A stretch of 64,000 bases of DNA from an uncultured Bacilli bacterium. GTDB lineage: Bacteria > Bacillota_I > Bacilli_A > RF39 > UBA660. Below the pieces are notes generated by a model that did no database searches, was not told the origin of the DNA, and saw only the letters and a list, made by a program, of their open reading frames with translations. Of the stretch, positions 6,998 through 32,643 are shown piece by piece. Location of the stretch: NCBI GenBank assembly GCA_910576925.1, contig CAJTKB010000005.1, forward strand, positions 3,139 through 67,138. The letters run 5' to 3'. Each line of letters opens with the position of its first letter. Position 1 is the first letter of the stretch. Position numbers and translations under genes: made by a program.

Positions 6998-8191
6998 CTA
7001 TTTTATCAAATATGGACTATCTATAGTTCCATCTCCACTTTTATACATAGTCTTACTATTAAGATAAATTACTGGTCTTATTTTTTTCCTACTAGAAGCT
7101 CTACCTTCTTCTATATATCCACTACTACTAACAGAATAGACTGAATATGAATTAGAATTTGAAGCTGTTATAAGCCACCAATTTATTTCATCATTTACTA
7201 AATAATTATAATTTTGACAAGATACAGAAACAGTATTATTACAACCACCATCTAGACTAGCTAGCATAAAATCAGATGCTGTTAATAATCCTAATTTTAA
7301 TTTTTCAGTTTCCATATTACATTCTAAAGAATTATCTACACTAGAATCATTTACTCCTCTTTTTCCAATACAATAACTATGAGCTACAATATGTTCTTTA
7401 TCACTTTTTTTAAATAATCCTTCATCTATACTATTATCTAATATATCATCAAGACTAGACTTTAATCTACTTATATTAAAATCATTTATTCCATAATTCA
7501 TTTCTTTTTGAGCATTATATCTATCATCCCAAGTATAAGATTCTTTTTTAGCTCTATCCTCTTTTATTAACATAACTTCATTATTAGATGATACTTTAAC
7601 TACTCTCCATAAATTATTATTTATAGACACATAATTATTAACATCATCACCTCTAAATATATACTGATTACCATAATAATATAATCCTGAACCAGTAGAT
7701 ACTATATTACTACTATCAGTAATTTTTCTAAATAACTCTGTTGTTTTATAATCATCACCACAATCTAAATATGGAATATAAATATAACTATCATCATTAT
7801 TTTCAACAACAACTTTACCAGAACAACTACTTTTTTTACTATACTTATCTAAATCCTTCATATATTTTAAATTACTAAGTTTTTGAGCACTTATTTCAAC
7901 AATACCACCATTGATCTTAGGAAGATCTGAAGCATTTTCTTTATAATATTTTATAGCAGCATTCTTCATTATCTTTTCTATATCTGCATAACCTCTACTC
8001 TTAGATGAAAACATTGAAAGAACAAATAATACAACTACTAATATAGCTGTAAAAATAGCTATTTTAAATAAGTATTTCATCATTTTTTCTTTATGTTCAC
8101 GTTTATCACTATCTTCATATGAGTTATTTTCTCTATCTTCATCTTTTAATTTTTCAATCAATTGTCTATTATTATTATATTTTGGATCCAT
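6998..8191 (-). CDS. Membrane-anchored extracellular protein, member A of the repeated-domain family (NYVxF..LWRV ... GxGTxxxPY), function unknown
   Basis: Charged N-terminus, one TM (IFTAILVVVLFVLSMF), then DVNNYVSINNNLWRVVKV ... RPVIYL ... GDGTIDSPYLIK at the extreme C-terminus. Confidence 0.7.
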   Translation of the reverse strand: MDPKYNNNRQLIEKLKDEDRENNSYEDSDKREHKEKMMKYLFKIAIFTAILVVVLFVLSMFSSKSRGYADIEKIMKNAAIKYYKENASDLPKINGGIVEISAQKLSNLKYMKDLDKYSKKSSCSGKVVVENNDDSYIYIPYLDCGDDYKTTELFRKITDSSNIVSTGSGLYYYGNQYIFRGDDVNNYVSINNNLWRVVKVSSNNEVMLIKEDRAKKESYTWDDRYNAQKEMNYGINDFNISRLKSSLDDILDNSIDEGLFKKSDKEHIVAHSYCIGKRGVNDSSVDNSLECNMETEKLKLGLLTASDFMLASLDGGCNNTVSVSCQNYNYLVNDEINWWLITASNSNSYSVYSVSSSGYIEEGRASSRKKIRPVIYLNSKTMYKSGDGTIDSPYLIK

Positions 8192-8243
8192 ATTTATTCC
8201 TCACTAACCAATATATTATTAATTATATAATAACATATTTTAT

Positions 8244-10556
8244 TTAATTATCAAAGAAATCATCAAAAAAGTCATCATCATCATCTTCATCTGATAAATC
8301 AAGATTAACCTTATCTTGAGATGGATGTTCTTCTTTATCAATTATTGCATCTTTTATAACCTTATTATTATCTACCTCTACATTTGAAATACTAGAAGGT
8401 TTAGCTGCAATCTCGCTCTTATTCTTTTCTTCTTCTGCATTTCTTCTTTCTTCTTCCTCAAGTTCAGCAATTTTAGCATCTATTTTCTTAACTAATTCAT
8501 CTACATTTATTCCACCAGGAGAAGATGAAGAAGCACCAAATGGTGTATCTTTACTACCTCCCATATTAGATAGGCTTTGACTAAACATTGGTGGCATATC
8601 AGCATCTTTAATTCCAAATGGATTAGAAATATCAGAAGTTGGTTTAGGTCTATTAGAAAGACCTGGTACCTCAGGAAGATTCATTGGCATATCAGGGGCA
8701 CTAGGAAACTTAGGAAGTCCTGGCATAGATGAAGACATTCCACCCATACCTGGAAATCCTGGCATTCCAAAAGGACTAGGCATACCAGAACCAAGGAATG
8801 GTGAGTCACCCTTTTTATCAGCAGAATTCATCATCTCTTGTAATTGCTTCTTCTTTCTCTCCTTTACAAATTCCTTTAAATCAAATGTACATACAGGAAC
8901 TTTTTCACGATTAGGATAACTTGCTTTAGGATAATTCTCCTTCCAATCAAGTTTATAATCAGGTGTAAAATGAGTCTTAAAAGGATTCATACGTAAACGC
9001 ATTATAATAACATCATTTTCTTTCATATGTTGTAAATCTGATATTGTAACTAAAGGAGTCGAAGCTGTTTTATCATCCTTTTTGGATTTAACTTCTCCAC
9101 ACATTTTACTAATTTCTTCAAGAGCCTTAAGTTCTGTTGTAACAAGATAGATAAGATTACCACAGTTACCGCGTAAAGTCTCAGCATCTTCTTTACCATA
9201 AACACCATCAAGTTGAGCAAAGTTCTGAATAATCATTGTAAATCTAATTTGTCTAGAACGTGCTGCTGTAATCATTGTTGTAACATCTTTTAAAGGTGGC
9301 ATATTGGCAAACTCATCAAGCAAGAAATTTGTTCTAACAGGAAGCTTACCACCATTTTCTTGAGCAACAGAAATCAAAGTTTCATAGATCTGTTTTAATA
9401 GAATTGTAACTAATGAGTGATATGTCTTTTTTTCATCTTGTATAACAATAAATACAGCAGTTGGTTTTTTACCAATACTTTCTAAATCAACATCACTATG
9501 TGATAACATTTCAGATAAATTTTCACGAGAAGCGAATAACTTAATTTTCTGTTTAAAGACAGATAAAATACTTCCCTTAGTATCAGTAGGTGCATTAATT
9601 GTACTAGAAGCATTAATATAAGCTGTACTTGCAGGATCTTTTGCATTAAAGTATTCCTTTATAAAAGTAGTTCCACCAAACTTATCTTCACCAACATTAC
9701 TCATAAGTGAAATACTATTAATATTGATTTCTTCTTCCTTAGCATCTTCAAAAAGTCCTAAAGCAAGTCCCGAAAAATAATCAGCTGACGTTTTCTCCCA
9801 GAAAGGATCAGCATTTTTATTACTAGGATCATACAAAATATTTAAAGCAAGGTCATCTAGTAACTCAATAGCCTTATCCTGATTACCACTTTTATACATT
9901 TTATATGGTAAATCCATTGGATTCCAAGCACTACCATTTTGTGGATCACGAAAGTTTAATAATAAGATTTGATATCCTTTAGCACGTAGCATCTCTGAAG
10001 TTTTTTCATAAATCTCACCTTTAGGATCAGTAATAACCATACTTTCTCTATGTTTAGCAAGTACTTTAACAGTTGGTAATATAACTGATTGAGTTTTTCC
10101 TGAACCAGTAGCACCAATTACTAAAGTATGATTTTCTCCATTATCTACATAAATTTGATCTCCCTTATAAATTAATGGAGTTCCACCAGCATTACTTTTA
10201 TTTGCTTTAACATCGATTACTTCAACCGCTTTACTATTAATAATCTCTTTGTCCTTTGCCCATCTAGAATATCCTTTATCCTTCTTATCAGTAGTTATTC
10301 CTATACCCTTCTCAAATTCAAATATAGTTGATTTTGCTCCCATCAAACAACCACCAAGAGCAAGAATAAAGAAACATATTGTACTACCAATATATCTAGA
10401 TGAAAAGGCAGGAAGAGGATTAGGTCCTGCTAAATAACCATATTGTGCAAAACTAGACAAATTAACTACAGCTACTGCCACAATATATAATAAAAATATT
10501 GAAAATATTAACAACATCAATAAATCTTCTGAATCAATTCTAATCTTTAACTTCAT
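8244..10556 (-). CDS. Type IV secretion coupling protein, VirD4/TraG/TraD family
   Basis: Two N-terminal TMs. Walker A VIGATGSGKTQSVILP, then ...LLDEFANMPPL...RSRQIRFTMIIQNFAQL. The C-terminal 200 aa are P/G/M-rich low complexity ending in the acidic tail DEDDDDDFFDDFFDN. Confidence 0.8.
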   Translation of the reverse strand: MKLKIRIDSEDLLMLLIFSIFLLYIVAVAVVNLSSFAQYGYLAGPNPLPAFSSRYIGSTICFFILALGGCLMGAKSTIFEFEKGIGITTDKKDKGYSRWAKDKEIINSKAVEVIDVKANKSNAGGTPLIYKGDQIYVDNGENHTLVIGATGSGKTQSVILPTVKVLAKHRESMVITDPKGEIYEKTSEMLRAKGYQILLLNFRDPQNGSAWNPMDLPYKMYKSGNQDKAIELLDDLALNILYDPSNKNADPFWEKTSADYFSGLALGLFEDAKEEEININSISLMSNVGEDKFGGTTFIKEYFNAKDPASTAYINASSTINAPTDTKGSILSVFKQKIKLFASRENLSEMLSHSDVDLESIGKKPTAVFIVIQDEKKTYHSLVTILLKQIYETLISVAQENGGKLPVRTNFLLDEFANMPPLKDVTTMITAARSRQIRFTMIIQNFAQLDGVYGKEDAETLRGNCGNLIYLVTTELKALEEISKMCGEVKSKKDDKTASTPLVTISDLQHMKENDVIIMRLRMNPFKTHFTPDYKLDWKENYPKASYPNREKVPVCTFDLKEFVKERKKKQLQEMMNSADKKGDSPFLGSGMPSPFGMPGFPGMGGMSSSMPGLPKFPSAPDMPMNLPEVPGLSNRPKPTSDISNPFGIKDADMPPMFSQSLSNMGGSKDTPFGASSSSPGGINVDELVKKIDAKIAELEEEERRNAEEEKNKSEIAAKPSSISNVEVDNNKVIKDAIIDKEEHPSQDKVNLDLSDEDDDDDFFDDFFDN

Positions 10557-10600
10557 AAGATACCACCCACTTTCAAAAATGTATTATATCATTAAATCTT

Positions 10601-11374
10601 CTAATTAGAAATAATTTCTTTAAATTTCTCGTTTTTATAGCGATATAATATCACATCTTTACCTAAATTACTATAATATGAGCAATTTATCATAAGATAA
10701 TTTTTATTATCTAATTCTAATATATTAGATACATATGGTTTACAAGTATTATCCAAAGAATTATTATCATATACTTTTTCATATATCATACTAATTTCAT
10801 TATTATCAACCAAAAATATAAATCCAAATGCCTTAGTACTATCATCTTCTGAAAAAACATTAGATATTGTATAAATTTGTTCCTCTACAGAATCACGATC
10901 TATATCTATATTAATAACATTGTTAACAGTTAAATTAGTAGTTACAATATCATATTTAGAAAAAACAGCACTAATGTAACTATCAATATTATTAGTATTC
11001 TTATCAAAACTTCTAATATTATATTTTAAGTCACTACTAATTCCTAACTTATTAGAAAAATCTAAATTTGCTTTTTTCTTATTGTTATCCATTAAATTCC
11101 AAACACCACTATAAATTAAATAATACTTTCCAAGTCCTTCACTTTCATCATAAATATCAAACAAATTCCAATTATAATTTGCCCTATTATTAGTCGGAAT
11201 ATTTCTCCATTCTTTATTTTTATATACAAATAAAGCATCATTTCCCACAGCTAAATTAATATAATTATTTACTCCTCTACCCTTATCTTTCTTAAAAAAG
11301 AATACAAAGAAAATAACAATATAAATAACAGCAATAATCAAAATAATATTATAAATTTTTTTATTCTTTTTCAT
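10601..11374 (-). CDS. N-terminally anchored extracytoplasmic protein, possibly a VirB8/TcpC-like T4SS component
   Basis: A single N-terminal TM followed by a 230-aa soluble domain. Its position between the coupling protein and the hydrolase matches the architecture of Gram-positive VirB8-like proteins. There is no motif-level support. Confidence 0.3.
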   Translation of the reverse strand: MKKNKKIYNIILIIAVIYIVIFFVFFFKKDKGRGVNNYINLAVGNDALFVYKNKEWRNIPTNNRANYNWNLFDIYDESEGLGKYYLIYSGVWNLMDNNKKKANLDFSNKLGISSDLKYNIRSFDKNTNNIDSYISAVFSKYDIVTTNLTVNNVINIDIDRDSVEEQIYTISNVFSEDDSTKAFGFIFLVDNNEISMIYEKVYDNNSLDNTCKPYVSNILELDNKNYLMINCSYYSNLGKDVILYRYKNEKFKEIISN

Positions 11375-11383
11375 ATCTTCTCC

Positions 11384-13612
11384 TTAACCAACAGTATAAT
11401 AAAGTATTCTTGAAGTGTTTTTCCATTTATAAACTTTCCACATATCATTAGAATTACTACCATTTGGTGGATCAGGATCCATTATTTTTATAGTATCACC
11501 ATTAACAGATTCAATAGCAACCCAATGCTGACCATCGTCTCCCATAACTTCTGCAATAACAGCATAATTATTATTAACTACTTCTCTAATAGTAGATAAT
11601 TTCTGAGCTTTTGACATACCTCTAAGTTCTATATTATTGCCAAACTTAAATGATGGAACAATTTCTGTAACTTTTCGCCATTGTAGAAATGCTCTATTAT
11701 CAAATCCACCAACTGCACTTAATGAAGTAGCAAAAGTACCTGGATCTAACTCTCCACTTATTGTAGTTTGAGCATTAAATTTTTTTACTAACATAGCAAT
11801 AGAAGTAGACATACAACCCGAACTACCAACAGTCATATTAGTATTACCAAGTTTTATATTAGACCACTTAGGATCTTTTTGACGCCATGTAGTATAATCT
11901 CCTGTAGAAGAAACACAAGAACTAGAACTTGTAATATCCCACTGTTCTAGATTATACTTTCTGATAGTATTTGTAATCTTAGATACATAATTAACATCTG
12001 TAGCATATCCTGCTTCTTTTATACGCTTTATTTGCTCATATGGATCTGTTGCTTGAGCTACTCCATGTCTAACATAGGTTCCTCCACTAACAAGAAGTGC
12101 TGAATGATCAAGTATTGCTTCCTCCACATTTTTAAATTTTTTAAAAGAAGACATAATAGTATATACACTACCACTACTTGTATTCTCTTGAGTAAGTACA
12201 GGTTCTGTACAACTTCCATCCCAAGTTGAAGGTGAAAGAATGTCCTTAGAACATTTAATTCCAAACAAATTATTAGAATCTGCTGTAGGAGTATGCTTAC
12301 CCCACCCAGCTTCGATAATAGCTTGTGCTATAGTAACTGATGCAAAAATACCTGTTTGAGCATATGCCTGATTAGCAATAGGACCAATAATATTAAAAAA
12401 CTCTTCTTGACTAACAGTTTTAAATATACTAGCTTGTGTATCACCATTAATAACACAAACTCCGCCTCCACCTTTACCACCAACAATATTTTTATAATCT
12501 TCAAGATAAGTAAATACTTCATCAGTTGCTTCCGCACATTCTTCTTTATCTAAATATTTAGGAAAAAATCTATTTTCTAAATAATTTCTAGCTGTACTCT
12601 CATTATAATTATATCTACAATTCTTTTCACCGTTTTCATCCTCTTCCTCACATGCTTCATCAAATAAATTATCAGCAATTTCACGAATTAAGGATTTTGT
12701 CATATCAGAAGGTTTAAATTTGTTACTTCTTGATGCCAATATATGATATATTCCTCCAATAACATCAGCAGAAAAATTTTTTCCATTAGATTGATATTCT
12801 TGTTGCACTTCTAATATATTGTTATACATCTCTTCTAATTTCTCGTCCCCACCTGAGGCTCCTGAAACATCTGCTTGATTACCAGCTGAACCAATTCCAA
12901 TAAGTGTCAAAAATCTACTTGCCGCCATTAAAGGGATTGATAATGCAAATATAAAAAAAATAAATGGTATAACAAAAGCAGCTACATAAATAACTATCTT
13001 TTTAGTAAAGAAACTTTTAGTTTTACTTGAAACTTCTTTTTTATTCTCTTTCGAGTCATTATCCTGATTTGTACTAGAAATACCCTCTTTATCATTTTTA
13101 GAGCTTGTCCTATTAACATATATATTTCTAATATTTCTAGCAAAATTATTTTGTAATTGCTCATTCAGTTTATTATCATTTTTTTCTCTTTCTCTATCAG
13201 CATTTGACTTTGAAGGTTGTGCAATATCTGTATTACTATTAAGGTTTCGCTTACCAACATTATCATCTTTTACTTTTGAATTTTTACTAGTTCCTTTATC
13301 AAACAACTTATTTCTATTAGGATTCTTCATTGACAAAGCCCCATTAGCTGCATTTAAAGCCCCTAAATCATCTGCTTTTTTAGCAACTTTTCCAAAAGTA
13401 CCACCAGTAGCAGTATTAAGAGCTTTTCCTGCTTTTTCTTCCGCTTTATCAATTTTTTTACCCGCTATAGGAGCCTTTTTAAGAGAATCATATACTCTTC
13501 CACCTTGGCCTCCTGTTAAATAGTCAATTCCTCCTTTAGCAGCAACGCCTGCAGCCTTTTTTGATGTTTCATCCTCTTTACGTTTTTGACTACTTTTTTC
13601 TTCATTGTTCAT
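11384..13612 (-). CDS. Bifunctional cell-wall hydrolase (GH73 N-acetylglucosaminidase plus C-terminal cysteine peptidase), CwlT/TcpG-like T4SS hydrolase
   Basis: K/N-rich N-terminus, a TM, then AQAIIEAGWGKHTPTADSNNLFGIKC (GH73/FlgJ-type). The C-terminus carries GSSGCMSTSIAML ... DGQHWVAIESVNGD, a papain-like Cys/His peptidase (C39/CHAP-like). Confidence 0.7.
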   Translation of the reverse strand: MNNEEKSSQKRKEDETSKKAAGVAAKGGIDYLTGGQGGRVYDSLKKAPIAGKKIDKAEEKAGKALNTATGGTFGKVAKKADDLGALNAANGALSMKNPNRNKLFDKGTSKNSKVKDDNVGKRNLNSNTDIAQPSKSNADREREKNDNKLNEQLQNNFARNIRNIYVNRTSSKNDKEGISSTNQDNDSKENKKEVSSKTKSFFTKKIVIYVAAFVIPFIFFIFALSIPLMAASRFLTLIGIGSAGNQADVSGASGGDEKLEEMYNNILEVQQEYQSNGKNFSADVIGGIYHILASRSNKFKPSDMTKSLIREIADNLFDEACEEEDENGEKNCRYNYNESTARNYLENRFFPKYLDKEECAEATDEVFTYLEDYKNIVGGKGGGGVCVINGDTQASIFKTVSQEEFFNIIGPIANQAYAQTGIFASVTIAQAIIEAGWGKHTPTADSNNLFGIKCSKDILSPSTWDGSCTEPVLTQENTSSGSVYTIMSSFKKFKNVEEAILDHSALLVSGGTYVRHGVAQATDPYEQIKRIKEAGYATDVNYVSKITNTIRKYNLEQWDITSSSSCVSSTGDYTTWRQKDPKWSNIKLGNTNMTVGSSGCMSTSIAMLVKKFNAQTTISGELDPGTFATSLSAVGGFDNRAFLQWRKVTEIVPSFKFGNNIELRGMSKAQKLSTIREVVNNNYAVIAEVMGDDGQHWVAIESVNGDTIKIMDPDPPNGSNSNDMWKVYKWKNTSRILYYTVG

Positions 13613-18425: not shown

Positions 18426-18445
18426 AACCCCACCTCCTTATATAC

Positions 18446-19252
18446 TTACTTTATACCACAAACTTGATCACCACTAGTGCCAAATACTAAATTAAGTATT
18501 AAATTAGCAAATAATGGTAAGAAAAATAATCCAATAGCACACAAAAGTCTAATTCCAAACTTTTTCTGCACTTTTTTCATATTTTCATCATCATTAGAAA
18601 GAATTGATTTAGTAAAATCAATTGAACCTAAAAGTATCACTAAAATAGGACCTAATATTTTAATATAATTAAATAATTTTTGTAAAAATTCAACTACACT
18701 ATTTCCAAGAACTTGATCACAAGAAACAACTGGATCTCTTGAAATATCTAATCCACCAGATAAATTCCCAGAATTATTATTGTTAGAATCATTTCCATTA
18801 ACAGTTACATAAGCACTATTATTAATACTATTAAGCTCAACTACTTCATGTCCACTTTTTCCAGGAGTTAAAGATTCAGCCTTATCAGTCATATCAGCTT
18901 TATTATAAAAGGCATATACTCTAAAAGTATTAGGTATAAAACCCCAATTTACATTATAAAAAACTAGAGCATAATTTGGGCATACTTCACTAGTCTTCTG
19001 CCCTTTAGCTCGACTTTTATCAAAATTTAATACTTTTTCTCCATTAGTTACAGCCTTACCTTTATAGTAAGTAATAGTTCCTCGAGCTATAGAATAATTA
19101 TCATAAATATCAAACTCATATTTAGTACCACCATCACTACTTGCATATGAACAAGTAGCTAACTTATTTTTTGCATAGGTACTAATTGGAAAAAATAATA
19201 TAAATAAAGCAATAAATATATATATAATTTTTCTACAAATAAATTTATTCAT
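18446..19252 (-). CDS. Secreted protein with a C-terminal VirB2/TrbC-like TM hairpin
   Basis: Signal peptide (ILFFPISTYA), a 170-aa extracellular domain, then LVILLGSIDFTKSILSNDDENMKKVQKKFGIRLLCAIGLFFLPLFANLILNLVF, paralogous to the C-terminus of the next gene. Confidence 0.5.
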   Translation of the reverse strand: MNKFICRKIIYIFIALFILFFPISTYAKNKLATCSYASSDGGTKYEFDIYDNYSIARGTITYYKGKAVTNGEKVLNFDKSRAKGQKTSEVCPNYALVFYNVNWGFIPNTFRVYAFYNKADMTDKAESLTPGKSGHEVVELNSINNSAYVTVNGNDSNNNNSGNLSGGLDISRDPVVSCDQVLGNSVVEFLQKLFNYIKILGPILVILLGSIDFTKSILSNDDENMKKVQKKFGIRLLCAIGLFFLPLFANLILNLVFGTSGDQVCGIK

Positions 19253-19344
19253 CAGTACTCACCCCAATTTAGGCAATATCAAATTTATTATATCAGACAA
19301 AAATAAAAATAGCAATTACAATTACTATTTTCTATATATTATTT

Positions 19345-19725
19345 CTATTCATCAGCTCTGCCCCAACAAGTAGCCCAACTTTCAGCATTTCCTACATCAT
19401 CACTATCACTATAATTAGCAACTATATTAAATACTAAAGAAACAATTGTTGTCATAAAGAAAATAACAACAGCATATAAAATTCTCTTTATTAATCTACT
19501 TTGAGCAGCTTTTACTTCCTTATCTTCACTTGATAAAACAGCCTTACCTAAATCAATAGTACCTAATAAAAGCAAAATTATTGGAATACCCATTTGAATC
19601 AATGGAAAAACTCCAAGTTTAATAACTCTAATAATAGGTAAAATATCCTTACACATATCAGCTTTTGCTGCTATTAGCATTAAACCATTCATTAATATCT
19701 CTCCTTCACTAATATTATGATACAA
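19345..19725 (-). CDS. Small membrane protein with VirB2/TrbC-pilin-like topology
   Basis: ILLLLGTIDLGKAVLSSEDKEVKAAQSRLIKRILYAVVIFFMTTIVSLVF: two hydrophobic helices separated by a charged loop, aligning with the C-terminus of the 18446..19252 product. Confidence 0.5.
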   Translation of the reverse strand: MYHNISEGEILMNGLMLIAAKADMCKDILPIIRVIKLGVFPLIQMGIPIILLLLGTIDLGKAVLSSEDKEVKAAQSRLIKRILYAVVIFFMTTIVSLVFNIVANYSDSDDVGNAESWATCWGRADE

Positions 19726-19755
19726 AATATAACACTTTTTGTCAATTATTATACG

Positions 19756-20730
19756 TTAAATTTTGAATAAACCAAATAATTTCTCAGTTTTTTGTTCTCC
19801 CTTAGTACCCAGTAATCCTAACTTTTGAACTAAATTTGCAATATAGTCACTCTTTCTTCTTTCATCTATTGGTGGTAATGTAAAAAATACTCTTGTATTT
19901 GATTCATATTCAAACTGCTCTACATCTTTACTAGAAAGAATACACTTGTTAAGGATTATTTTCTCCCCCTCTAATGACTTAAATAATTTATTATTAATTC
20001 TCATAAGTTTATTAAGCATAATAGTACTAGGTTCTAATAAATAAAGTACATCTGTACAATTTGAGTAATCTTTTAAATCATTAAGATCAACTAAAATAAT
20101 CTTAGCTTCTAACTTTTCTATTGTCGACTTTAAACTATCTTTATTAGTAGTAATACATCTTTCAACATTAAAATATTCTAAATCATGCCTACTTATTTCA
20201 ATAGCATATACTAAATCCCCATATGTTTTCTCTAATTCCTTCTTTAGCATATATACAAGTGTTGTTGCACCAGCATGACTTGATAAGTTTTTAATACCAA
20301 CTACCACTTTACCAGAATTAGCATCAGCACAAACAGGCGTAGGAACTGGTTCCATTTCCTTGACATATGCCACATCAGCCTCTGAATTATCATGAGTAAG
20401 TAAATACTGAACTCCTTTAATATTATTAGTAAAATTATAAATTCTAAAACTAACTAATTTAGATAAATAAGTAGAACTAGATACTTCTGGTATATTAGGC
20501 AAAAAAAAGATTATTTTACTTGCAACTAATCCCATAGATAATTTCTGAATATTAGAAATATTTAAATAATCTTTTACTGCTGTAATATCAAGTATCATCT
20601 TATTAAAATAGAAATTCTTAAAAGTATTAACAATTTCATCAGCCGAAAAAACACCATTCATACTTTTAATTACATCAATATCTAAATTAGAAAGTTCATT
20701 TTGTCTTTCATTTGTAACAATTACATTCAT
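19756..20730 (-). CDS. TadZ/CpaE-like protein (deviant ParA/MinD ATPase fold)
   Basis: GKVVVGIKNLSSHAGATTLVYML (degenerate Walker A of the KGGxGKTT type) in the C-terminal half. Context is next to CpaF/TadB/TadC. Confidence 0.4.
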   Translation of the reverse strand: MNVIVTNERQNELSNLDIDVIKSMNGVFSADEIVNTFKNFYFNKMILDITAVKDYLNISNIQKLSMGLVASKIIFFLPNIPEVSSSTYLSKLVSFRIYNFTNNIKGVQYLLTHDNSEADVAYVKEMEPVPTPVCADANSGKVVVGIKNLSSHAGATTLVYMLKKELEKTYGDLVYAIEISRHDLEYFNVERCITTNKDSLKSTIEKLEAKIILVDLNDLKDYSNCTDVLYLLEPSTIMLNKLMRINNKLFKSLEGEKIILNKCILSSKDVEQFEYESNTRVFFTLPPIDERRKSDYIANLVQKLGLLGTKGEQKTEKLFGLFKI

Positions 20731-20736
20731 AAACTA

Positions 20737-21219
20737 TCACCTTTTAAGAACTCTTATTTCTTTAGTAGAACCAGTTACTGAAAACTGATTAATATGTGGA
20801 AACAAAAGATTAAATATTGGAATATCTATACTAACAAATGTTTTCACATCTATATAAGTAGTTTTATACTCACTAACATTAGTACCATTAGAATCACCAC
20901 TCATAGTATTATCACTACTAGATTTATGTTCTTTATAACACCAACCAATATTGTTACTATCTCTATCATATCCACTATTACCACAAGTATTAGTATAATT
21001 ACTAGAAGCACTATAGCCAATAGATTTAGCATATTCTCTAATTTCTTCCTGTGCATCATCTGTAATTACATTATTATGCTTTTCAAGTACATTTATAGTT
21101 TTATTTTTCATCTTAAAAGCTTTATTATAGTTAGTATTAAAAGCAAGAAAACCACTTATAAGAATTATTACAAAAAATACAAAGCTTACAATCCAAATAC
21201 TACCTAAAGACTCTCGCAT
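20737..21219 (-). CDS. N-terminally anchored protein, paralog 1 (possibly TadE/pseudopilin-like, non-canonical)
   Basis: MRESLGSIWIVSFVFFVIILISGF..., shared GWCYK motif with the next ORF. No G/xxxxE prepilin motif. Confidence 0.4.
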   Translation of the reverse strand: MRESLGSIWIVSFVFFVIILISGFLAFNTNYNKAFKMKNKTINVLEKHNNVITDDAQEEIREYAKSIGYSASSNYTNTCGNSGYDRDSNNIGWCYKEHKSSSDNTMSGDSNGTNVSEYKTTYIDVKTFVSIDIPIFNLLFPHINQFSVTGSTKEIRVLKR

Positions 21220-21238
21220 CTAATACCTCCTTAAATTA

Positions 21239-21712
21239 TTAATCCATAATAGGAATTTGACTAGTAGTTCCAGACATCCAGAAAAATTTAAATCTACTTA
21301 ACATCTGTTTAATTACTGGAATATTTAAATTAACAAACACTACTATATCAACAGTAAACTTCTTAATTGGTAATTCACCTAATTCAGAACTTGATACTAC
21401 TGGTGCATTTTTCTTATAACACCATCCTATAGGTTCACCATTATATGTTGGACAAGTATAGCCTTCTGCTTCAGCTTTTCCTAAAGCATCTTGACCAGCT
21501 CTATATCCAACAGACCTAGAATATCTATAAGTTGCCTCTAGCATATCATTATAACTAGTATTTCCCTCATATTTTTCTAAATATGATAAAACGTTATTCT
21601 TAACTCTATATGCTTTTGTATAATTGATAGCTAGCGAAATAAATCCGCTAACTAACATTATAAAGAAAAAAAGCAAGGTTAAATTTAAATAAGTACCTTT
21701 GGCATCTCTCAT
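21239..21712 (-). CDS. N-terminally anchored protein, paralog 2 (possibly TadE/pseudopilin-like, non-canonical)
   Basis: MRDAKGTYLNLTLLFFFIMLVSGF..., GWCYKKN. Paralog of 20737..21219. Confidence 0.4.
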   Translation of the reverse strand: MRDAKGTYLNLTLLFFFIMLVSGFISLAINYTKAYRVKNNVLSYLEKYEGNTSYNDMLEATYRYSRSVGYRAGQDALGKAEAEGYTCPTYNGEPIGWCYKKNAPVVSSSELGELPIKKFTVDIVVFVNLNIPVIKQMLSRFKFFWMSGTTSQIPIMD

Positions 21713-21724
21713 AAAACCACCTCA

Positions 21725-21883
21725 CTATGGTTCAGTATAACTATTATTGCTAGTAACATCCCACTGATTATTAATACTGTCCTTAATTCTTGGCCAAAGA
21801 ATCACTGAAAAGAATACAGAAATAGCAGTAATAGCAATAATTGTAACTACTGTCATATTTAACTCTCCTGAAGCTTCTTTCAT
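21725..21883 (-). CDS. Unannotated 52-aa single-TM ORF, candidate Flp-like pilin
   Basis: Found by manual translation: GGAGAG RBS 7 nt upstream of the ATG at 21883, MKEASGELNMTVVTIIAITAISVFFSVILWPRIKDSINNQWDVTSNNSYTEP, stop TAG at 21727..21725. It sits between the TadC-like gene and the two anchored paralogs. Below the 60-aa cutoff of the ORF track. Confidence 0.45.
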   Translation of the reverse strand: MKEASGELNMTVVTIIAITAISVFFSVILWPRIKDSINNQWDVTSNNSYTEP

Positions 21884-21947
21884 GAATCATCTCTCCTTTC
21901 ATACCTTACATTTAAATAATATCATATATTTTTTTTTATTGCAATAA

Positions 21948-22739
21948 CTACATTGCAGAACCAAACATTCCCATCATAGCAATTAAAAGTATTAGCATAA
22001 CAAATACACCAGTACAAACAAGCATTACCATAGTTTGACTTTCCATTTTTTCAAGACGCTCTTTATATTTTGTTTCTCTGGCTTTTTGTTGAAGTGAAGA
22101 AACACTTCTTGAAAACATCATAAGACGTTCCTGTTTTCTCTCTTGAGAACCAATTCCTAAACGATATAAAAGTCTCATCATACGCATAGAGTCACGTACT
22201 GGATATGTATTTGCAAACTCCATATACGGATCAACTGAAGCATCTCCTGAATTAATTCTATCAACCATCTTTTTTAATCCTGGTTGAAATATTTCTGGAG
22301 CATCTTCTATTGATTTACCAATTGCAACAGGAACTGTATAATGTTGTACAAGTATTTCCAAACTCTTTAAATAGTATGGCAACATTATATCGATTTCATG
22401 CAAATGTCTTTTATAATAACTCTTTAAATTCATATAATTGGATTTAAAGACAAAATATGCAACAACAAAGCAAACAACAATATTTAACATACTAAAACTA
22501 TTTAAGAATAAAACCATCATAGCAGCACCACCAATAGCAGCAGTACTTATTCTCTTTTGAAATAAAACATCTGGATCAGCCTTAGTACCATACTTCATAT
22601 AAACTAAAAACTCATAATCATCTTCTCTTAAATTCTTTAAAAGTTTTTCATTATCCTTAGCAAATTTTTTAGTATTAATTGTATTATTATAAACAAGTAC
22701 ACCTAATATTAATGCACCAAATATAAATATCTCAAACAT
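21948..22739 (-). CDS. TadC-like inner-membrane platform protein (T2SS-F-like topology)
   Basis: 263 aa: N-terminal TM, a TM pair around residues 63-100, a cytoplasmic domain, and a C-terminal TM. Adjacent to the TadB-like gene and CpaF. Confidence 0.5.
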   Translation of the reverse strand: MFEIFIFGALILGVLVYNNTINTKKFAKDNEKLLKNLREDDYEFLVYMKYGTKADPDVLFQKRISTAAIGGAAMMVLFLNSFSMLNIVVCFVVAYFVFKSNYMNLKSYYKRHLHEIDIMLPYYLKSLEILVQHYTVPVAIGKSIEDAPEIFQPGLKKMVDRINSGDASVDPYMEFANTYPVRDSMRMMRLLYRLGIGSQERKQERLMMFSRSVSSLQQKARETKYKERLEKMESQTMVMLVCTGVFVMLILLIAMMGMFGSAM

Positions 22740-23641
22740 TATTCAGCACCTACATTCTCATTATAATATTTTTCACCCTTTAACAAGAAACCTGAATTAA
22801 CAAGTATAATTGCATGTAAGAATAATTGTATATACCATTTTTCTAAAAGAATAATATAACTTTCTTTTCCAAGTAAGTATTGAACAAGAAGTGTAAGAAT
22901 ATAAAGCATAACTCCAAATTGCAAAAACTTTCTATGAAATGTTTGTCTATCAATTCTATCTCTATACACTCCTTCAACAAGAGTATCTATATCAAGTTGC
23001 ATTTGTTCCAAACTATCTGCTGTATTTCTTGCACCTTCTTTAGTAATTTGCAAGAATAATTGATGCATATTTTTCACAATATAGTATGGATATAATTGAT
23101 TAAAATATGCAAGAGACTCATCAATACTACCATTTTTATAAGCAAGTTCTATCATTCTATCAACATCTCCTGCTACAGGATCTTCCAAAAGTCCAGATTC
23201 CCTAACTCCTTCAAGTGATTTAACAAATGATTGAGTTGTAGCAAATTCCATAATAGTATTACTAGTATATACTTGTACTTGTTCGAAAATAAACTCACTA
23301 TACACTCTATTACATCTTAAAAACGAAATATAAGGAACTATCATTACTCCAAAAATTACATATAAAATAGCTATAATTAAATTATAAAAATATAAATATG
23401 CAATAAGTCCTAAAAATCCACCAATCAAAACAGCTTGTATAACATATTGTCTAGCAGTATATTCTTGACCTAATTGTTTAGTTTTTTCACGAACTTTTTT
23501 ATATGAATAAGGAGCAAATTTATCATACAAAACAGTTACCTGATCATTTATAAAGTGCACAGCATTTTTACCATTATAGCCACGATATAAGATAACTAAA
23601 ATAGCAATTACTAATACTATAAATAATTCCATAAACTTCAC
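22739..23641 (-). CDS. TadB-like inner-membrane platform protein (T2SS-F-like topology)
   Basis: 300 aa with the same 1 + 2 + C-terminal TM arrangement around a cytoplasmic domain. Its start overlaps the TadC-like stop. Confidence 0.5.
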   Translation of the reverse strand: MKFMELFIVLVIAILVILYRGYNGKNAVHFINDQVTVLYDKFAPYSYKKVREKTKQLGQEYTARQYVIQAVLIGGFLGLIAYLYFYNLIIAILYVIFGVMIVPYISFLRCNRVYSEFIFEQVQVYTSNTIMEFATTQSFVKSLEGVRESGLLEDPVAGDVDRMIELAYKNGSIDESLAYFNQLYPYYIVKNMHQLFLQITKEGARNTADSLEQMQLDIDTLVEGVYRDRIDRQTFHRKFLQFGVMLYILTLLVQYLLGKESYIILLEKWYIQLFLHAIILVNSGFLLKGEKYYNENVGAE

Positions 23642-23649
23642 TCCTTTAT

Positions 23650-25245
23650 TTATTGATTTTCACTAGGTAAAACAGGATTTATCATAGATGAATTAACAGA
23701 ATTAAATGGAACCTGTTCATTATTATTAATGATAGAATCTTCTACTAAATTAGTGCCTAAATTATTTAATATTTGATTATTTTCACTAATATTATTCATA
23801 TTTACTTCAGGAATACCTACATTCATATTAGATATTGCAATATCACTATTATTATCCTGAATGGAAATACCATTATTAGTAACTGGATTAACACTAGTAG
23901 CTTCATATTCTATATTATTTGGACTATTTGGTATCACTTCTTGTACAACATTTTGAACAGCTTCTTCTACTACAGGAGATGAATTATCTATAATATTACT
24001 GCTCGGAGCATATGCTGCATAATATTTATTATCATTATTAATTTCTACACTATTATTTTGAGTAACATCAACTTGCCCACTTTTAGTCTCTATATTATTT
24101 ACATAAACTTGATCATTAAAATTATTGTTATCTAAATTTACTGATTGTAAATCTCCACTTCCCTCATCAGAATCATTTAATGGATCATCCTCCAAATGAT
24201 TTACTATTTGTGAAACATCAACATTCTGATTTTCAAGATATTCAAGTAAATGTTTAGAAGGTTTACTCATAATAGGTGATTTGCCAAATATTTTTCTATA
24301 AATTGTATGAGATTGAGGCTTATTATTCTCATCAACATAAAATTCAACTACTTCATCTAACTCACGATGAAATTTACCATACTGTTTAGAATAATAAGCT
24401 TTAATATGAACACCTAATTGTACATAACGATATATTGTAGTTAAAAACTGATCAACATCTAAATCCGTTTCCATCAAACTATAAAGACGATAAGGAATAG
24501 CACTAGCTTTATCAGCATGAATTGTTGACAAAATATTGTGTCCTGAAGATATTGAGTTACGAACAGCTGAAACGGCTTCAGCACTACGAACCTCTGAAAG
24601 TAGAATCCATTTAGGATTCTGTCTCATACAAGTAACTAAAACATCAGTATAAGAAGCTACATTATTTGTCTTCATTGCAACAATATCTCTTTGTGGAAAG
24701 ATCCTATCTAAATGAAGCTCTAAGGTATCTTCTATAGTAATAATTTTTTCACTCTCTTTAGTATGACTAGCCAAATATTTAACAAACTCAGTTTTACCAG
24801 AACCTGTTTCTCCAGCAACAAGTATATTACAATGGCCCTGAACACATTTAATTAAGAAATCATGTATATCAGCAGTAAAATAGTCATCCTTCAAAAGTTT
24901 TTCTTTCTCTAATCTAATTTTAGCAGGAGTTTTACGTATAACACAAGCTATACCATTAGTAGCAATAGACTCATCTACGAAATTAAGACGTAACTCTGAG
25001 CTTTCAGCATCAAGAAATGGTTTAGCATTATTAAAAGTTGTACCCATAACGTTAGAACATTGGAAAGCAAGCTTTTCCATAAATTCTGGTGTACAACTTG
25101 GAATTTCTACTCGTAAAGACCCCTGAGTTAGAGAACGAATCCATATTTGACCAGCATTACAATATGAGATATCTGTTATATCATCATTATCAAGTAACGG
25201 TTTTAAAGGACCAAAGTCCAATTTATCAAAAATACTCTCTTGCAT
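23650..25245 (-). CDS. CpaF/TadA/VirB11-family secretion ATPase with a long Asn/Gln-rich C-terminal extension
   Basis: Walker A VAGETGSGKTEF, Walker B region WILLSEVRSAEA, His box GHNILSTIHADKASA. The last roughly 190 aa are N/Q/S-rich low complexity. Confidence 0.75.
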   Translation of the reverse strand: MQESIFDKLDFGPLKPLLDNDDITDISYCNAGQIWIRSLTQGSLRVEIPSCTPEFMEKLAFQCSNVMGTTFNNAKPFLDAESSELRLNFVDESIATNGIACVIRKTPAKIRLEKEKLLKDDYFTADIHDFLIKCVQGHCNILVAGETGSGKTEFVKYLASHTKESEKIITIEDTLELHLDRIFPQRDIVAMKTNNVASYTDVLVTCMRQNPKWILLSEVRSAEAVSAVRNSISSGHNILSTIHADKASAIPYRLYSLMETDLDVDQFLTTIYRYVQLGVHIKAYYSKQYGKFHRELDEVVEFYVDENNKPQSHTIYRKIFGKSPIMSKPSKHLLEYLENQNVDVSQIVNHLEDDPLNDSDEGSGDLQSVNLDNNNFNDQVYVNNIETKSGQVDVTQNNSVEINNDNKYYAAYAPSSNIIDNSSPVVEEAVQNVVQEVIPNSPNNIEYEATSVNPVTNNGISIQDNNSDIAISNMNVGIPEVNMNNISENNQILNNLGTNLVEDSIINNNEQVPFNSVNSSMINPVLPSENQ

Positions 25246-25288
25246 CTAACTCACATCCACTCTTTTATTCTTTTTTATTCTTTATTTA

Positions 25289-26104
25289 TTATTCCATACC
25301 ATCTGTCCATACAGTAACACTATTAATGAAATCTTTTATATCATTACTTGAAAGTTTTAAATCACCTGGGTTTGTTTTTAAACTTTCAGCTGTTGGAACA
25401 GGACTAAGTTCAGTACTATAATTCTTTAAGTATCCTGCTTTCTTTAATAATATATAATGTTCTTCAGGAACAGCAAATATAAGCATTGCTGGAACAGAAT
25501 TCTCTTCAACATTAGAGAAAACATTTTTACCATTAGCATCTCTTACCGCAAGAACTTTTACATTCTCAAGTAATCTACCAACCATTACTTTACCATTATT
25601 AGGATCATTTTCATCAGTAGATGAAGCATAAGTAGCTTTAAAATAAAGATCAATATAATTACCTGGATAAATTGAATTACTGTAAGTAGTTGTTATATTA
25701 ACTGTCATATAATATAGAACATATCCTTTTGGATAATCAAGTATTATACTATCTGGTAACTGATCCTTTTCAACAACTACACTTTGATAAAATAAACTTC
25801 CTTGAGGTATAACAGTATCTGCCCTAGCATATTTATCAATAACTTGTTGTTTAGATCTAACAACTTCACTCTTTAACATTGCTGGAGGAACCTGTGTTTC
25901 TCCTACCATATCCTCAGTAATTTGAGTACTAGGATTAATTTCTTGTAAAGCATAAGGTACAGTTATAGGATGTGTTGCCTGTTGCACACGCCAATTATAA
26001 AATATATACAACACAACAATTGCCGCAATTACTCCGACAATTGTTACTGTATTTTTATTCGCTAAAAACTTTTTCAAGCCAACCGTAATATTATTCATTT
26101 TCAT
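25289..26104 (-). CDS. CpaB/RcpC-like pilus assembly protein
   Basis: N-terminal TM, then a SAF-like region and VLAVRDANGK...AMLIFAVPEEHYILLKKAGYL, typical of the CpaB C-terminal domain. Confidence 0.45.
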   Translation of the reverse strand: MKMNNITVGLKKFLANKNTVTIVGVIAAIVVLYIFYNWRVQQATHPITVPYALQEINPSTQITEDMVGETQVPPAMLKSEVVRSKQQVIDKYARADTVIPQGSLFYQSVVVEKDQLPDSIILDYPKGYVLYYMTVNITTTYSNSIYPGNYIDLYFKATYASSTDENDPNNGKVMVGRLLENVKVLAVRDANGKNVFSNVEENSVPAMLIFAVPEEHYILLKKAGYLKNYSTELSPVPTAESLKTNPGDLKLSSNDIKDFINSVTVWTDGME

Positions 26105-26117
26105 TCTCCTTCATTAA

Positions 26118-26606
26118 CTAGTTAATATTATTAACACTTGTTATCTTCAAATCTTTAATATATTCTTTATTTTGGTTTGTAATAGCAATATTAGTTTTAT
26201 TCTTACTTTCTAATATCATATCAACATTAGTAGTAATATCAAAAGATTCGCCTTCCTTAAATTTTTTTATAAGTTGAGTTTCCTTCTTAGATTCAATCTT
26301 AACACTCACTTTAGGAGGAGTCTCATTAATATCATATACCTTAATATTATAATCTCTTGAGCCATCTACAGAAACAGCAAATCTTTTTATAAAACTCTCC
26401 ATAAATTTTTCTTTATCCATTCTAATAGCACCAAACTGGCGATAGTATGCAAGATCTGTTGCATCATTCATTGCAGCTTCAGTTGTTTCTTTCAAAAGAT
26501 AATAATCAAGTTCTGCACCAGTCTGTTGACTATTGATAAGACTTATACTGTAAAATCCAAGAACAGCTATCAAAATAATTCCGATAGATAACATCGCTTT
26601 ATTCAT
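26118..26606 (-). CDS. N-terminally anchored hypothetical protein
   Basis: 162 aa with a single N-terminal TM. Function unknown. Confidence 0.5.
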   Translation of the reverse strand: MNKAMLSIGIILIAVLGFYSISLINSQQTGAELDYYLLKETTEAAMNDATDLAYYRQFGAIRMDKEKFMESFIKRFAVSVDGSRDYNIKVYDINETPPKVSVKIESKKETQLIKKFKEGESFDITTNVDMILESKNKTNIAITNQNKEYIKDLKITSVNNIN

Positions 26607-26626
26607 ATAGTATCACACCTCCTAAA

Positions 26627-29600: not shown

Positions 29601-30034
29601 ACGATTACATAAAAGTCAGATACTCCATTAACTGTATAAGGGCTTTGCTTAACCTCATTATGTTTAATAACATAATTACCACTAACTCCATTAGCAATAT
29701 TTCTAGAACCAGCTCCTTTAATAGCTTTATTTGCAATCTTTTTGAGTTTAGTATTAGATTTATCAGAAAGATCAGAATCACTTATTAAATTTTCTGGAAC
29801 TAACCATATAGAATATTTACCATTTCCTAATTCTACTTCAACGTTTTTTAACTTTTCTCCATCTGAACTAGAATTCATAGAAAATTTAGCACTAGCACCA
29901 GAGCAATATCCTTCTTTTTCAGCTTCAGCATAAACGTCAAAATTTTTAACGATAATATTCATAGATAAAATTAATGTTAAAAATAAACCAACCCATTTTT
30001 TATTCATAAAATTATATTTATGCATAATCATCAT
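26627..30034 (-). CDS. Large secreted, extremely cysteine-rich protein (about 60 Cys); putative adhesin or effector
   Basis: Signal peptide (MNKKWVGLFLTLILSMNIIV, probable start near 30007), then dense Cys clusters (SGCFYAANDYTPTCKGDSCDNVCEFAEGCDNITNKCEGASCSPCTGSSCE...). No C-terminal LPXTG/NPQTN signal and no hydrophobic tail. Confidence 0.7.
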   Translation of the reverse strand: MMIMHKYNFMNKKWVGLFLTLILSMNIIVKNFDVYAEAEKEGYCSGASAKFSMNSSSDGEKLKNVEVELGNGKYSIWLVPENLISDSDLSDKSNTKLKKIANKAIKGAGSRNIANGVSGNYVIKHNEVKQSPYTVNGVSDFYVIVMLEVDENIPNCSYWLKIEHVTHDNQRSNATIEKTLANKEACDWATSFVNTVDSRMATLVKKAMAPCFGSSYNMSKDNLNKIKKSLEDFYNNTYKKFADSTKGDGSYTAFSKDLPALDSKWKEIKDTKKVDYKALGANSSSMLTCSTKNEKTFQYLYHIETKNINADIVLGDGVVADRKTTTKKVCGTKCRETLTISYGPPVAVIAGQCFTYEVEVKSNVECVVTGLGGDGNGGNGDDAFNNFPDINNYVPCEVYPYCYGSNGVPAGGSGYQNQAGPTEDFDSCISSCDGGKYSQKCIDSCYNSVYNKKTKTSESTKKSTTKKTSTLDNVSTDNKNYSDLVKSSELTIDEINRKIYSIDTITLATRMGLLSGGSVGGNSCPGGDPLSDPSVISKIYEYVNDNITGNYSMNGKTISYTAKGSCEWNKYGYYYFRDKSITARTVCNAYGYSWIWGSTTCSSTPAASCRAANGCYKGRPGGTGHYYPDSNGFKRSTVCQETCEWINSGKSYTGGNCYYLDKEKAESDYVSNVNKYIDALTKCIEAVVANCNTETTNFTIAVNNDVETGADKQKCDSGNYDSNGNCIRKDDNNQQNTFIDNSKLEYNRILKYNGGTCSTGFNNSGSGTKTDMYHSIITFPGAWINNKNGEVVYDKPKESEGKWYTSKIGNYCTPLTAKNVNAHWWTWYQYYKAGTTNKTFDEWAGNKSKDITYNIFAKITDFGKYNWNLNSGCFYAANDYTPTCKGDSCDNVCEFAEGCDNITNKCEGASCSPCTGSSCEANRKTPVDNYTTKSISPKTMFPQTKTSSLSTESVSPTRLSYVDKMADAAEGTRKEGFNWSVNATNLSIAGYPVTPSTLVKKIENSNVYDESEVDYEINLTKEQIRKIKNEAKDSKFSYTSYTDGKFEEIKGDSTKYLAVVKSDNTKKYNENTIPSFKYYRSSYIRSHGATKYPSDNGLSCNNIASGGNGCDITLGGRTNSDDELISFLSSAQSIR

Positions 30035-30827: not shown

Positions 30828-30838
30828 AACACCCTTAA

Positions 30839-32611: not shown

Positions 32612-32643
32612 CTTTATCCCTCTTCAATTATCTTTCTAATATT

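Follow-up and report, generated by a model that had tools for sequence, protein, structure and literature searches.

The described systems that come closest to the locus reported here are the conjugative type IV secretion systems (T4SSs) of Gram-positive plasmids such as pLS20 and pAW63. Their ATPase has been named a VirB11 homolog (PMC8557374, PMC9673590). In pLS20 the genes concerned sit within a single conjugation operon, of which genes 38-47 are listed as unknown (PMC8557374). In their survey of type IV filaments (TFF), Denise et al. recorded no T4SS-linked TFF (PMC6668835), and in the literature we covered, which was incomplete, no paper was found that places a platform pair or a CpaB-like partner beside a Gram-positive T4SS. 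Here we analyse a stretch of 64,000 nucleotides of contig CAJTKB010000005.1 from an uncultured Bacilli bacterium (the whole stretch is called the window below), in which genes resembling those of Tad (tight adherence) pilus machines, at positions 19756-26104, stand beside the genes of a T4SS. With a probability of roughly 0.6, a class of monoderm T4SSs includes, as an integral and co-transcribed component, a Tad-like motor of a filament or pseudopilus that is used for contact or wall penetration, and the cluster in the window is a chromosomal organelle without a linked relaxase.

Eight open reading frames (ORFs) occupy 19756-26104, all on the minus strand and with gaps of -1 to 64 nt. In the order of transcription they encode proteins of 271, 531, 300, 263, 52, 157, 160 and 324 aa. 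A preliminary description of this region, made from the letters and the ORF translations, had their positions, strand and tight spacing right, but it let the T4SS genes come first; in transcription order the Tad-like genes precede the T4SS genes. Among related genomes, counted throughout on the best 80 species-level loci of at least 439, the order is kept in 61-80 of 80 for each gene, in the span from the 526-aa protein at the head to VirB4. Since both the gene order and the family of the 52-aa protein are conserved across species, these ORFs are real genes and not chance ORFs.

Within 19756-26104, only the CpaB-like protein (271 aa) and the ATPase (531 aa) have matches in Pfam or NCBIfam; the 300-, 263-, 157-, 160-, 52- and 324-aa proteins have none. 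The CpaB-like protein matches PF16976 (4.5e-6) and TIGR03177 (3.8e-9), both under the curated cut-offs, and in hhalign its family aligns with the annotated CpaB of a Bacillus mycoides plasmid at 99.3% probability (E 1e-20, 216 columns). By sequence profile, the CpaB/RcpC component of a Tad system is therefore present. The ATPase matches PF00437 (1.5e-27), has intact Walker A, Asp box, Walker B and His box motifs, and corresponds to the TadA/CpaF-family hexameric secretion ATPase of Tad systems. Among solved structures its closest matches are CpaF (2.7e-19) and FlaI (3e-18), over residues 2-256 and both domains. The ATPase ends in a low-complexity tail of about 190 aa, rich in N, S, Q and V (residues ~345-531; window 23650-24210, minus strand). 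This tail is hypervariable in length, full-length orthologs ranging from 365 to 752 aa, and the catalytic part is about 83% identical.

The 300-aa protein (its ORF begins at GTG; gene callers give 297 aa) belongs to a very narrow family: of 1.84 billion cluster representatives, only about 25 are related to it over the full length, with identities of 20-31%. A sequence-profile search of the PDB with this family returned noise only, and a T2SSF Pfam match was found in 1 of 23 diverse relatives (E 0.021). The predicted structure has the GspF/PilC (T2SS-F) fold. The AlphaFold2 model reached a predicted local distance difference test score (pLDDT) of 85.3 and a predicted template modelling score of 0.71 with distant relatives in the multiple sequence alignment; these relatives, at 20-30% identity, were needed, as a shallow alignment of sequences 70-100% identical gave a pLDDT of 59. 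In hhalign, the family matches the TadB-position family of the free-standing Tad locus of B. mycoides p539 (98.5%, E 3e-15) and a PF00482-bearing relative, P0398 (96.9%). The 263-aa protein, with an N-terminal transmembrane segment (TM), a cytoplasmic helical domain and one or more C-terminal TMs, is a paralog of the first platform protein. It matches the 300-aa family at 94.7% (E 6e-8, 207 columns), and a pooled family of second platform genes from the window, pLS20 (gene 39), pXO2, Listeria and B. mycoides matches the 300-aa alignment at 97% (E 9e-11). The two single-domain T2SS-F platform proteins of a Tad system, TadB and TadC, thus both have counterparts. Comparisons by hhalign with single proteobacterial T2SSF, CpaB, Flp and TadE sequences were non-significant; firmicute intermediates alone bridged the gap. 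Because the 300-aa protein has the T2SS-F fold and the ATPase is related to CpaF, the module is a genuine set of the type IV filament kind, consisting of a CpaB-like protein, a CpaF-type ATPase and a TadB/TadC-like pair. The labels given to these four proteins in the preliminary description, and its view that the 157- and 160-aa proteins are anchored paralogs (100% in hhalign), hold: the ATPase falls in no unrelated family and the T2SS-F fold is there.

The same module can be recognised in plasmids. The best plasmid matches of the ATPase are in the pLS20 family (35% identical; E 2e-43 to pLS20 gene 37), Listeria pLIS1, pXO2 and the B. cereus group, all annotated as 'ATPase, T2SS/T4P/T4SS family'; it is 32% identical to the ATPase of the B. 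mycoides p539 Tad locus. In pLS20, pXO2 and pLIS1, the ATPase gene is followed by genes for two membrane proteins of 245-277 aa, an anchored protein of about 114-120 aa and a small hydrophobic protein, with VirB6 further downstream. VirD4 and VirB4 lie in the pLS20 and pLIS1 stretches, and a VirB2-like protein is annotated in pXO2. Ahead of the ATPase gene, pLS20 and pLIS1 have genes for a thioester adhesin and for a small protein with an anchor. Gene 36 of pLS20 belongs to the DUF5411 family (1.4e-5) and is the counterpart of the 162-aa protein of the window. The 300-aa family matches pLS20 gene 38 (97.1%), the 277-aa protein of pXO2 (97.1%) and the 267-aa protein of Listeria (94.1%). The second platform genes of pLS20, pXO2 and pLIS1 give consistent but weak matches to the 263-aa family; for pLS20 gene 39 this is E 5e-4 alone and 97% in the combined family. 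Genes 40 and 41 of pLS20 correspond to window proteins by size, position and topology only. The window thus carries a module of the pLS20 type, in the order of genes 36-41 and upstream of VirD4, VirB6 and VirB4. The preliminary description had considered the combination not a described architecture. This does not stand for the arrangement as such, which is present in pLS20, pXO2 and pLIS1 with the 'VirB11' ATPase of pLS20 and pAW63 already noted; it stands for the neighbours of that ATPase, which were listed as unknown. What can be recognised here, from profiles and predicted fold, is the Tad-like platform module in those same plasmids.

By its protein families, the T4SS of the window is of the monoderm type, similar to those of mycoplasma integrative and conjugative elements (ICEs) and of the MPF-FATA class. 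Its genes encode, 5' to 3', proteins of 126, 268, 695, 105, 206, 596, 742, 257, 770 and 397 aa. VirD4 matches PF02534 (3e-60) and the CD1115-family model NF045973 (306 bits against a cut-off of 250). VirB4 matches the mycoplasma-ICE model NF045975 (VirB4_plasma, E 2e-102), but is split into two products, each under the cut-off: the 206-aa protein covers model positions 93-276 and the 596-aa protein 294-891, and the two halves (13669-16076, minus strand) overlap by 4 nt. The split is kept in 62-63 species loci, with median identities of 72% (206 aa) and 82% (596 aa), and is therefore not a sequencing frameshift. The VirB6-like 695-aa protein matches the mycoplasma ICE membrane families NF045848 (9e-9) and NF045889 (3e-6) as well as PF19597 (0.0067), and the 742-aa protein is a cell-wall hydrolase (glucosaminidase, PF01832, 9e-29). 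The C-terminus of the 268-aa protein matches PF18895 (0.0033), and the 126-aa family aligns with this C-terminus at 98.1% in hhalign. VirB4 and VirD4, together with a VirB6-like protein, a hydrolase and VirB2/VirB3-like proteins, make up the set expected of a monoderm (MPF-FATA-like) T4SS, the VirB2/VirB3-like assignments of the small proteins being weak. Eight kb outside the cluster, beside a Mur ligase gene and housekeeping genes, a further gene (41923-42774, minus strand) encodes a 283-aa fusion of a VirB2-like T4SS_pilin domain (PF18895 6.7e-9, above the cut-off) and an NlpC/P60 peptidoglycan endopeptidase.

Four small proteins of the module are candidates for filament subunits. The 52-aa family is present in 77 of the 80 loci, with a median identity of 56%. 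Its gene lies directly 3' of the platform genes, a position held in the B. mycoides Tad locus by the Flp-like genes; the match to the small protein of that locus is weak (hhalign, E 1e-3). The N-terminus reads MK(A/E)A(T/S)GELN(L/M)TV(I/V)T, with an invariant Gly6-Glu7 followed by a hydrophobic helix, and has no long leader. Neither the G/xxxxEY processing motif of Flp prepilins nor an Flp Pfam match is found in this family. By eye, its N-terminus AATGELNLTVITLIAIAAV is collinear with the mature Flp sequence ATAIEYGLFAALIAAV (from L088), with the Glu in the same place; this alignment presumes either no cleavage or the removal of two residues and is without statistical support. On that condition, Glu7 of the 52-aa protein would correspond to Glu5 of Flp. 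A distant relative of the 52-aa protein in L178 begins with MKAFFEEYGLV... and by eye resembles the 'EYGL' core of Flp.

The 157- and 160-aa proteins share a conserved N-terminus, MRDAxGG followed by a hydrophobic helix and then by NVNYTKAFRVKN. Each is weakly similar to a 114-aa protein of Listeria pLIS1 (157 aa, E 7e-4; 160 aa, 44% probability, E 2e-4). Neither matches TadE, and weak Pilin_N and DUF4320-like signals occur in the group of small proteins. The DUF5411 protein (162 aa), whose family is found in 72 loci, starts with MNK(G/A)MLTVGIIIL and then a helix, and has a weak match to archaeal Pilin_N (0.04). Archaeal Pilin_N is also the commonest weak Pfam match among 62 small proteins (8 members, best E 0.0022). 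The N-termini of all four proteins resemble those of class III (prepilin-like) proteins with very short leaders. Because the segment before the helix is only 2-6 residues long and Glu7 stands at the place of Flp Glu5, the pilin candidates may need no dedicated peptidase or may use one encoded elsewhere. The latter has a precedent in the MSH pili, a type IV filament locus that has no peptidase of its own and borrows one from elsewhere (PMC6668835). The 526-aa polytopic protein of the cluster was considered as a hidden prepilin peptidase and dropped, no GxGD aspartyl-peptidase motif being seen in its translation. The 157-aa protein evolves fast (median identity 32% across species loci). More generally, median identities are lowest, at 27-34%, for the two paralogs of ~158 aa and for the 1135-aa protein at the cluster head, against 82-83% for the ATPase and VirB4; this fits surface exposure of the fast-evolving proteins.

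The 324-aa protein had been labelled a TadZ-like deviant ParA, and this label remains unproven. Its family has no Pfam or NCBIfam match, and a PDB profile search gave zero matches. The alignment with a firmicute TadZ (B. mycoides) is weak (hhalign, E 0.05), a degenerate hAGATT falling in register on the NVGKST P-loop. The protein may be a degenerate ParA/TadZ-like organiser. The gene is kept in 76 of the 80 loci, and a relative 38% identical persists in the reduced cluster of L176; it therefore belongs to the module. In L176 and L177 (9209-12774), CpaB-, TadB-, TadC- and 324-like genes (26-38% identical) lie beside ribosomal protein genes. The ATPase and the small pilin-like genes are missing in between, so that this related lineage has the module in a reduced or re-purposed form.

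Table 1. Genes of the Tad-like/T4SS cluster in the window, from the module to the end and the head of the unit
Feature	Position	Strand	Evidence
CpaB/RcpC-like protein, 271 aa (N-terminal TM, SAF and RcpC domains)	25289..26104	-	PF16976, TIGR03177, hhalign
Secretion ATPase of the CpaF/TadA-FlaI-VirB11 superfamily, 531 aa	23650..25245	-	PF00437
TadB-like inner-membrane platform protein, 300 aa, single T2SS-F domain	22739..23641	-	Fold, hhalign
TadC-like second platform protein, 263 aa	21948..22739	-	Paralogy by hhalign
Flp-like candidate major pilin, 52 aa (single hydrophobic helix, short tail)	21725..21883	-	Position, conserved N-terminus
Anchored paralog, 157 aa, candidate minor pilin/pseudopilin	21239..21712	-	hhalign to 160-aa protein, N-terminus
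Anchored paralog, 160 aa, candidate minor pilin/pseudopilin	20737..21219	-	hhalign to 157-aa protein, N-terminus
Soluble 324-aa protein, constant companion of the module	19756..20730	-	Synteny; weak TadZ match
DUF5411 protein, 162 aa, N-terminal hydrophobic anchor; pilin-like accessory	26118..26606	-	PF17424, E 1.3e-48
Two VirB2-like T4SS pilin-type proteins, 126 and 268 aa	18446..19725	-	PF18895, hhalign
T4SS core: VirB6-like 695 aa, VirB3-sized membrane protein 105 aa, split VirB4 206 + 596 aa	13669..18425	-	
Cell-wall hydrolase 742 aa, anchored protein 257 aa, VirD4 770 aa, anchored protein 397 aa; end of cluster	6998..13612	-	
Head of unit: polytopic protein 526 aa, Ig-like surface protein 590 aa, sortase, Cys-rich surface protein 1135 aa	26627..34224	-	Domain matches

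The window has about 27% GC and carries nearly every gene on the minus strand. The cluster forms a block of 24 genes in about 27 kb (6998-34224, minus strand) with intergenic gaps of at most 92 nt, and a terminator-like hairpin (34766-34730) lies immediately ahead of its first gene. From 18000 to 34224, the minus strand has a single terminator-like site, a minimal one of 5 pairs (31643-31626) within the 590-aa gene. The order of the head genes is kept in 61-71 loci. A sortase gene (30018-30827, minus strand) lies within the operon, and no sorting signal of the LPXTG type was found near the C-terminus of any protein of the cluster. The 1135-aa protein (26627-30034, minus strand) has a signal peptide, is very Cys-rich and without Pfam domain, and takes the place that the thioester adhesin Tie has in pLS20 and pLIS1; with 27% median identity it is the product of the fastest-evolving gene of the cluster. 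At the cluster head, a thioredoxin/PedC-like gene is transcribed divergently (34322-34732, plus strand), as is also the case in L176 (8717-9118). Cys-rich surface proteins together with a divergent thioredoxin gene hint at a linked function in disulfide handling.

If the Tad-like module is an integral part of the T4SS, its mode of action might be as follows. The ATPase hexamer would dock on the TadB/TadC heterodimer and, as a motor, pull the 52-aa Flp-like subunit out of the membrane, so that a short filament or pseudopilus is built. Priming or tipping this filament could be the task of the two ~158-aa paralogs and of the DUF5411 protein, and the CpaB-like protein could guide it across the wall. 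The filament would then make or stabilise contact with a target cell, or make an opening in the thick wall for the T4SS channel beside it; DNA or protein would be moved through this channel by means of VirB4 and VirD4.

Several points weigh against this reading. The filament is deduced, none having been seen, and its functional coupling to the T4SS would have to be read from the conserved gene order. As the preliminary description had observed for its candidate pilins, the canonical Gly(-1)/Glu(+5) motif (G/xxxxE) is absent from all four small proteins, none of which has a significant match to Flp, TadE or any other pilin family. Likewise, no Peptidase_A24 match was obtained among the scanned ORFs of the window, nor was an A24 peptidase found in 2.5 Mb of relatives' neighbourhoods by single-seed phmmer, a search of low sensitivity. 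The identity of the 324-aa protein as a Tad component is unproven. The papers on pLS20 state that pilus components are absent (PMC8557374, PMC11730352). Among NCBIfam models, all of which stay under their cut-offs, the ATPase scores marginally best with VirB11 (109 bits, against 101 for TadA), and a small neighbour-joining tree does not separate an affinity of the firmicute ATPase clade to proteobacterial CpaF from one to VirB11 (67.5% bootstrap).

Some of these points could be accommodated if the ATPase were the VirB11 equivalent of the system, and the T2SS-F-like and small proteins were inner-membrane subunits of the T4SS, no type IV pilus-like filament being made. This is an unlikely solution, although it agrees with the name VirB11 already given to the homologs in pLS20 and pAW63 (PMC8557374, PMC9673590), with the NCBIfam ranking, with the lack of a prepilin peptidase and of a canonical pilin motif, and with the fact that in neither pLS20 nor pXO2 does the module occur on its own. 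The likeness of the ATPase to CpaF and FlaI extends over its full length, including the N-terminal domain, whereas VirB11 structures match the core only (2e-13). In the same tree, the ATPases of this lineage, pLS20, pXO2 and Listeria form a clade (89% bootstrap), the sister of which is the CpaF of a firmicute Tad locus (B. mycoides, 88.5%). We know of no VirB11 ATPase that pairs with T2SS-F platform proteins or with CpaB. The free-standing Tad locus of B. mycoides p539 has homologs of all three components, their order unchanged, with Flp-like genes behind them. Type IV filament machines are defined by the combination of ATPase, platform pair and CpaB (PMC6668835).

Another question is whether the module and the T4SS belong together at all. 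Two independent neighbours, namely a Tad adhesion pilus for attachment to gut or particles and a separate T4SS, could be adjacent without functional meaning. Free-standing Tad loci do exist in firmicutes, and L176 and L177 keep the CpaB, platform and 324-like genes in another context. Moreover, the 30 nt that separate the 324-aa gene from the first VirB2-like gene hold the sigma-70-like match that scores best in the region scanned (TTGACA, 17 nt, TATCAT; 11/12; 19745-19717, minus strand); the T4SS half could have an internal promoter here. However, promoter-like matches occur at chance frequency in such AT-rich DNA and were therefore not used to define operons. The adjacency recurs in the very distant replicons pLS20, pXO2, pLIS1 and this chromosome and holds across 80 species loci, and in pLS20 the genes lie within a single conjugation operon (PMC8557374). 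We therefore consider mere neighbourhood rather improbable.

The surroundings of the cluster are those of a chromosome. Past the end with VirD4 and the 397-aa gene follow genes for a rhodanese, RmuC and TrpRS; on the other side lie genes for thioredoxin, a two-component system, Mur ligase, MltG, RuvX, PFOR and GreA. The sequence composition of the window is uniform across the block. Scans of the 64-kb window gave no relaxase family match, no integrase and no tRNA, and in relatives no relaxase was found between VirD4 and the housekeeping flank. In other species, on about 20 metagenomic contigs whose VirD4 is 57-69% identical, the cluster is likewise followed by genes for rhodanese and RmuC (66-82% identical); the 397-aa gene stands ahead of them on most, and TrpRS (71-78%), where the contig extends that far, is present on about half. 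The housekeeping flanks being the same across species, the cluster keeps a fixed position and is inherited vertically.

Relatives of the 300-aa protein are found in at least 439 species-representative genomes, and the best 80 are 65-98% identical to it. Exact or close copies occur in gut metagenomes and in metagenome-assembled genomes labelled uncultured Bacilli, uncultured Tenericutes, Mycoplasma sp. CAG:877, Candidatus Onthousia (Bacilli incertae sedis according to NCBI) and Candidatus Faecimonas. The lineage carrying the cluster is presumably the group that GTDB calls RF39, and our search of the literature on RF39 with T4SS or Tad found nothing relevant. Near-identity DNA searches of an 8-kb region against plasmid and phage collections gave nothing. 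Nine contigs (L128, L141, L146; L129, L132, L133; L153, L166, L170) carry VirD4 relatives (52-70% identical) with other downstream genes; they may come from other lineages or represent truly mobile versions of the system.

That the block is itself an ICE, intact or decayed, which spreads horizontally among gut Firmicutes, as the preliminary description had assumed, is highly improbable: its T4SS proteins are nearest to mycoplasma ICE and CD1110/CD1115 conjugation families, its closest plasmid relatives are conjugative and VirD4 has different neighbours in the distant contigs L128, L129, L132 and L153, but genes for relaxase, integrase and tRNA are all absent from the window, the composition is uniform, the flank is the same on the ~20 contigs of other species, and at least 439 species-level genomes carry a relative.

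The lack of a linked relaxase and the vertical inheritance imply that the machine probably serves the cell, in contact-dependent exchange or uptake, and not the transfer of a mobile element. A bolder version of our reading, which we put forward tentatively, is that a gut lineage of Bacilli with reduced genomes has domesticated a T4SS and a Tad-like motor as a permanent, relaxase-independent contact organelle with leaderless Flp-like pilins, and that the same motor is the mating-pair device of pLS20 and pXO2. By analogy with the essential T4SS of Patescibacteria, and just as tentatively, such an organelle might take DNA or nutrients from neighbours or deliver them.

The core of a type IV filament machine, namely the ATPase and the TadB/TadC-like pair, with small single-helix proteins behind them, is carried by a broad class of monoderm T4SS operons comprising pLS20, pXO2/pAW63, the Listeria plasmid and this chromosomal cluster, the clusters of the gut lineage having a CpaB-like gene in addition. 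This contradicts a standard statement on Gram-positive T4SSs and may bear on how mating pairs form across a thick wall. Conjugation genes listed as 'unknown' become the subject of a specific hypothesis, which can be tested in the tractable pLS20 of B. subtilis. The cluster is inherited vertically and without a linked relaxase in hundreds of uncultured species of the gut, which suggests that the T4SS serves the cell itself, and such a role in a prevalent, uncultivated lineage of the human and animal gut would echo the case of the Patescibacteria.

Among known systems, the Tad machines are represented in firmicutes by the free-standing locus of B. mycoides p539, which consists of CpaB, TadZ, CpaF, TadB, TadC and three Flp-like genes. 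The module of the window is like it in CpaB (99.3%), in the ATPase, which belongs to the sister clade, in the TadB-like protein (98.5%), in having a paralogous second platform protein and in the small single-helix proteins encoded right behind the platform genes. Unlike Tad/Flp (type IVc) systems, it has no canonical Flp leader with G/xxxxEY and no TadV/CpaA peptidase in the neighbourhood, a TadZ is not demonstrable, and it does not stand alone but lies within a T4SS operon.

With the pLS20 operon (genes 34-54) and with pXO2, pAW63 and pLIS1, the window shares the succession of adhesin, DUF5411 protein, ATPase, two platform proteins, small anchored proteins and T4SS; in pLS20 these small proteins are an anchored one of about 120 aa and a single-TM one of about 47 aa, after which come VirB2-like, VirD4, VirB6 and VirB4. 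pLS20, pXO2 and pLIS1 are plasmids with a relaxase, whereas the cluster of the window is chromosomal, lineage-wide and without a linked relaxase. It has in addition the CpaB-like gene, the 324-aa gene, the second ~158-aa paralog and the sortase gene; VirD4 comes last and VirB4 is split, unlike in the pLS20 group. A pairing of this kind is also known from the IncI plasmid R64, in which a thin type IVb pilus (pil) aids mating-pair formation by a Dot/Icm-like T4SS, notably in liquid (PMC12857230). R64 differs in that there are two separate clusters, the type IVb pilus has canonical prepilins and a PilU peptidase, and the envelope is diderm; homology to the window is at the superfamily level only.

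Finally, the chromosomal T4SS of Patescibacteria belongs to a different phylum, and no TFF-like ATPase/platform module is reported within its cluster, type IV pili being separate (PMC12102498). As in the window, however, it is an MPF-FATA-like VirB4 cluster with VirB2-like genes and no relaxase nearby (PMC12102498). Both T4SSs lack a nearby relaxase and both are widely conserved in a lineage with reduced genomes, suggesting that each of them was probably co-opted for a cellular function.

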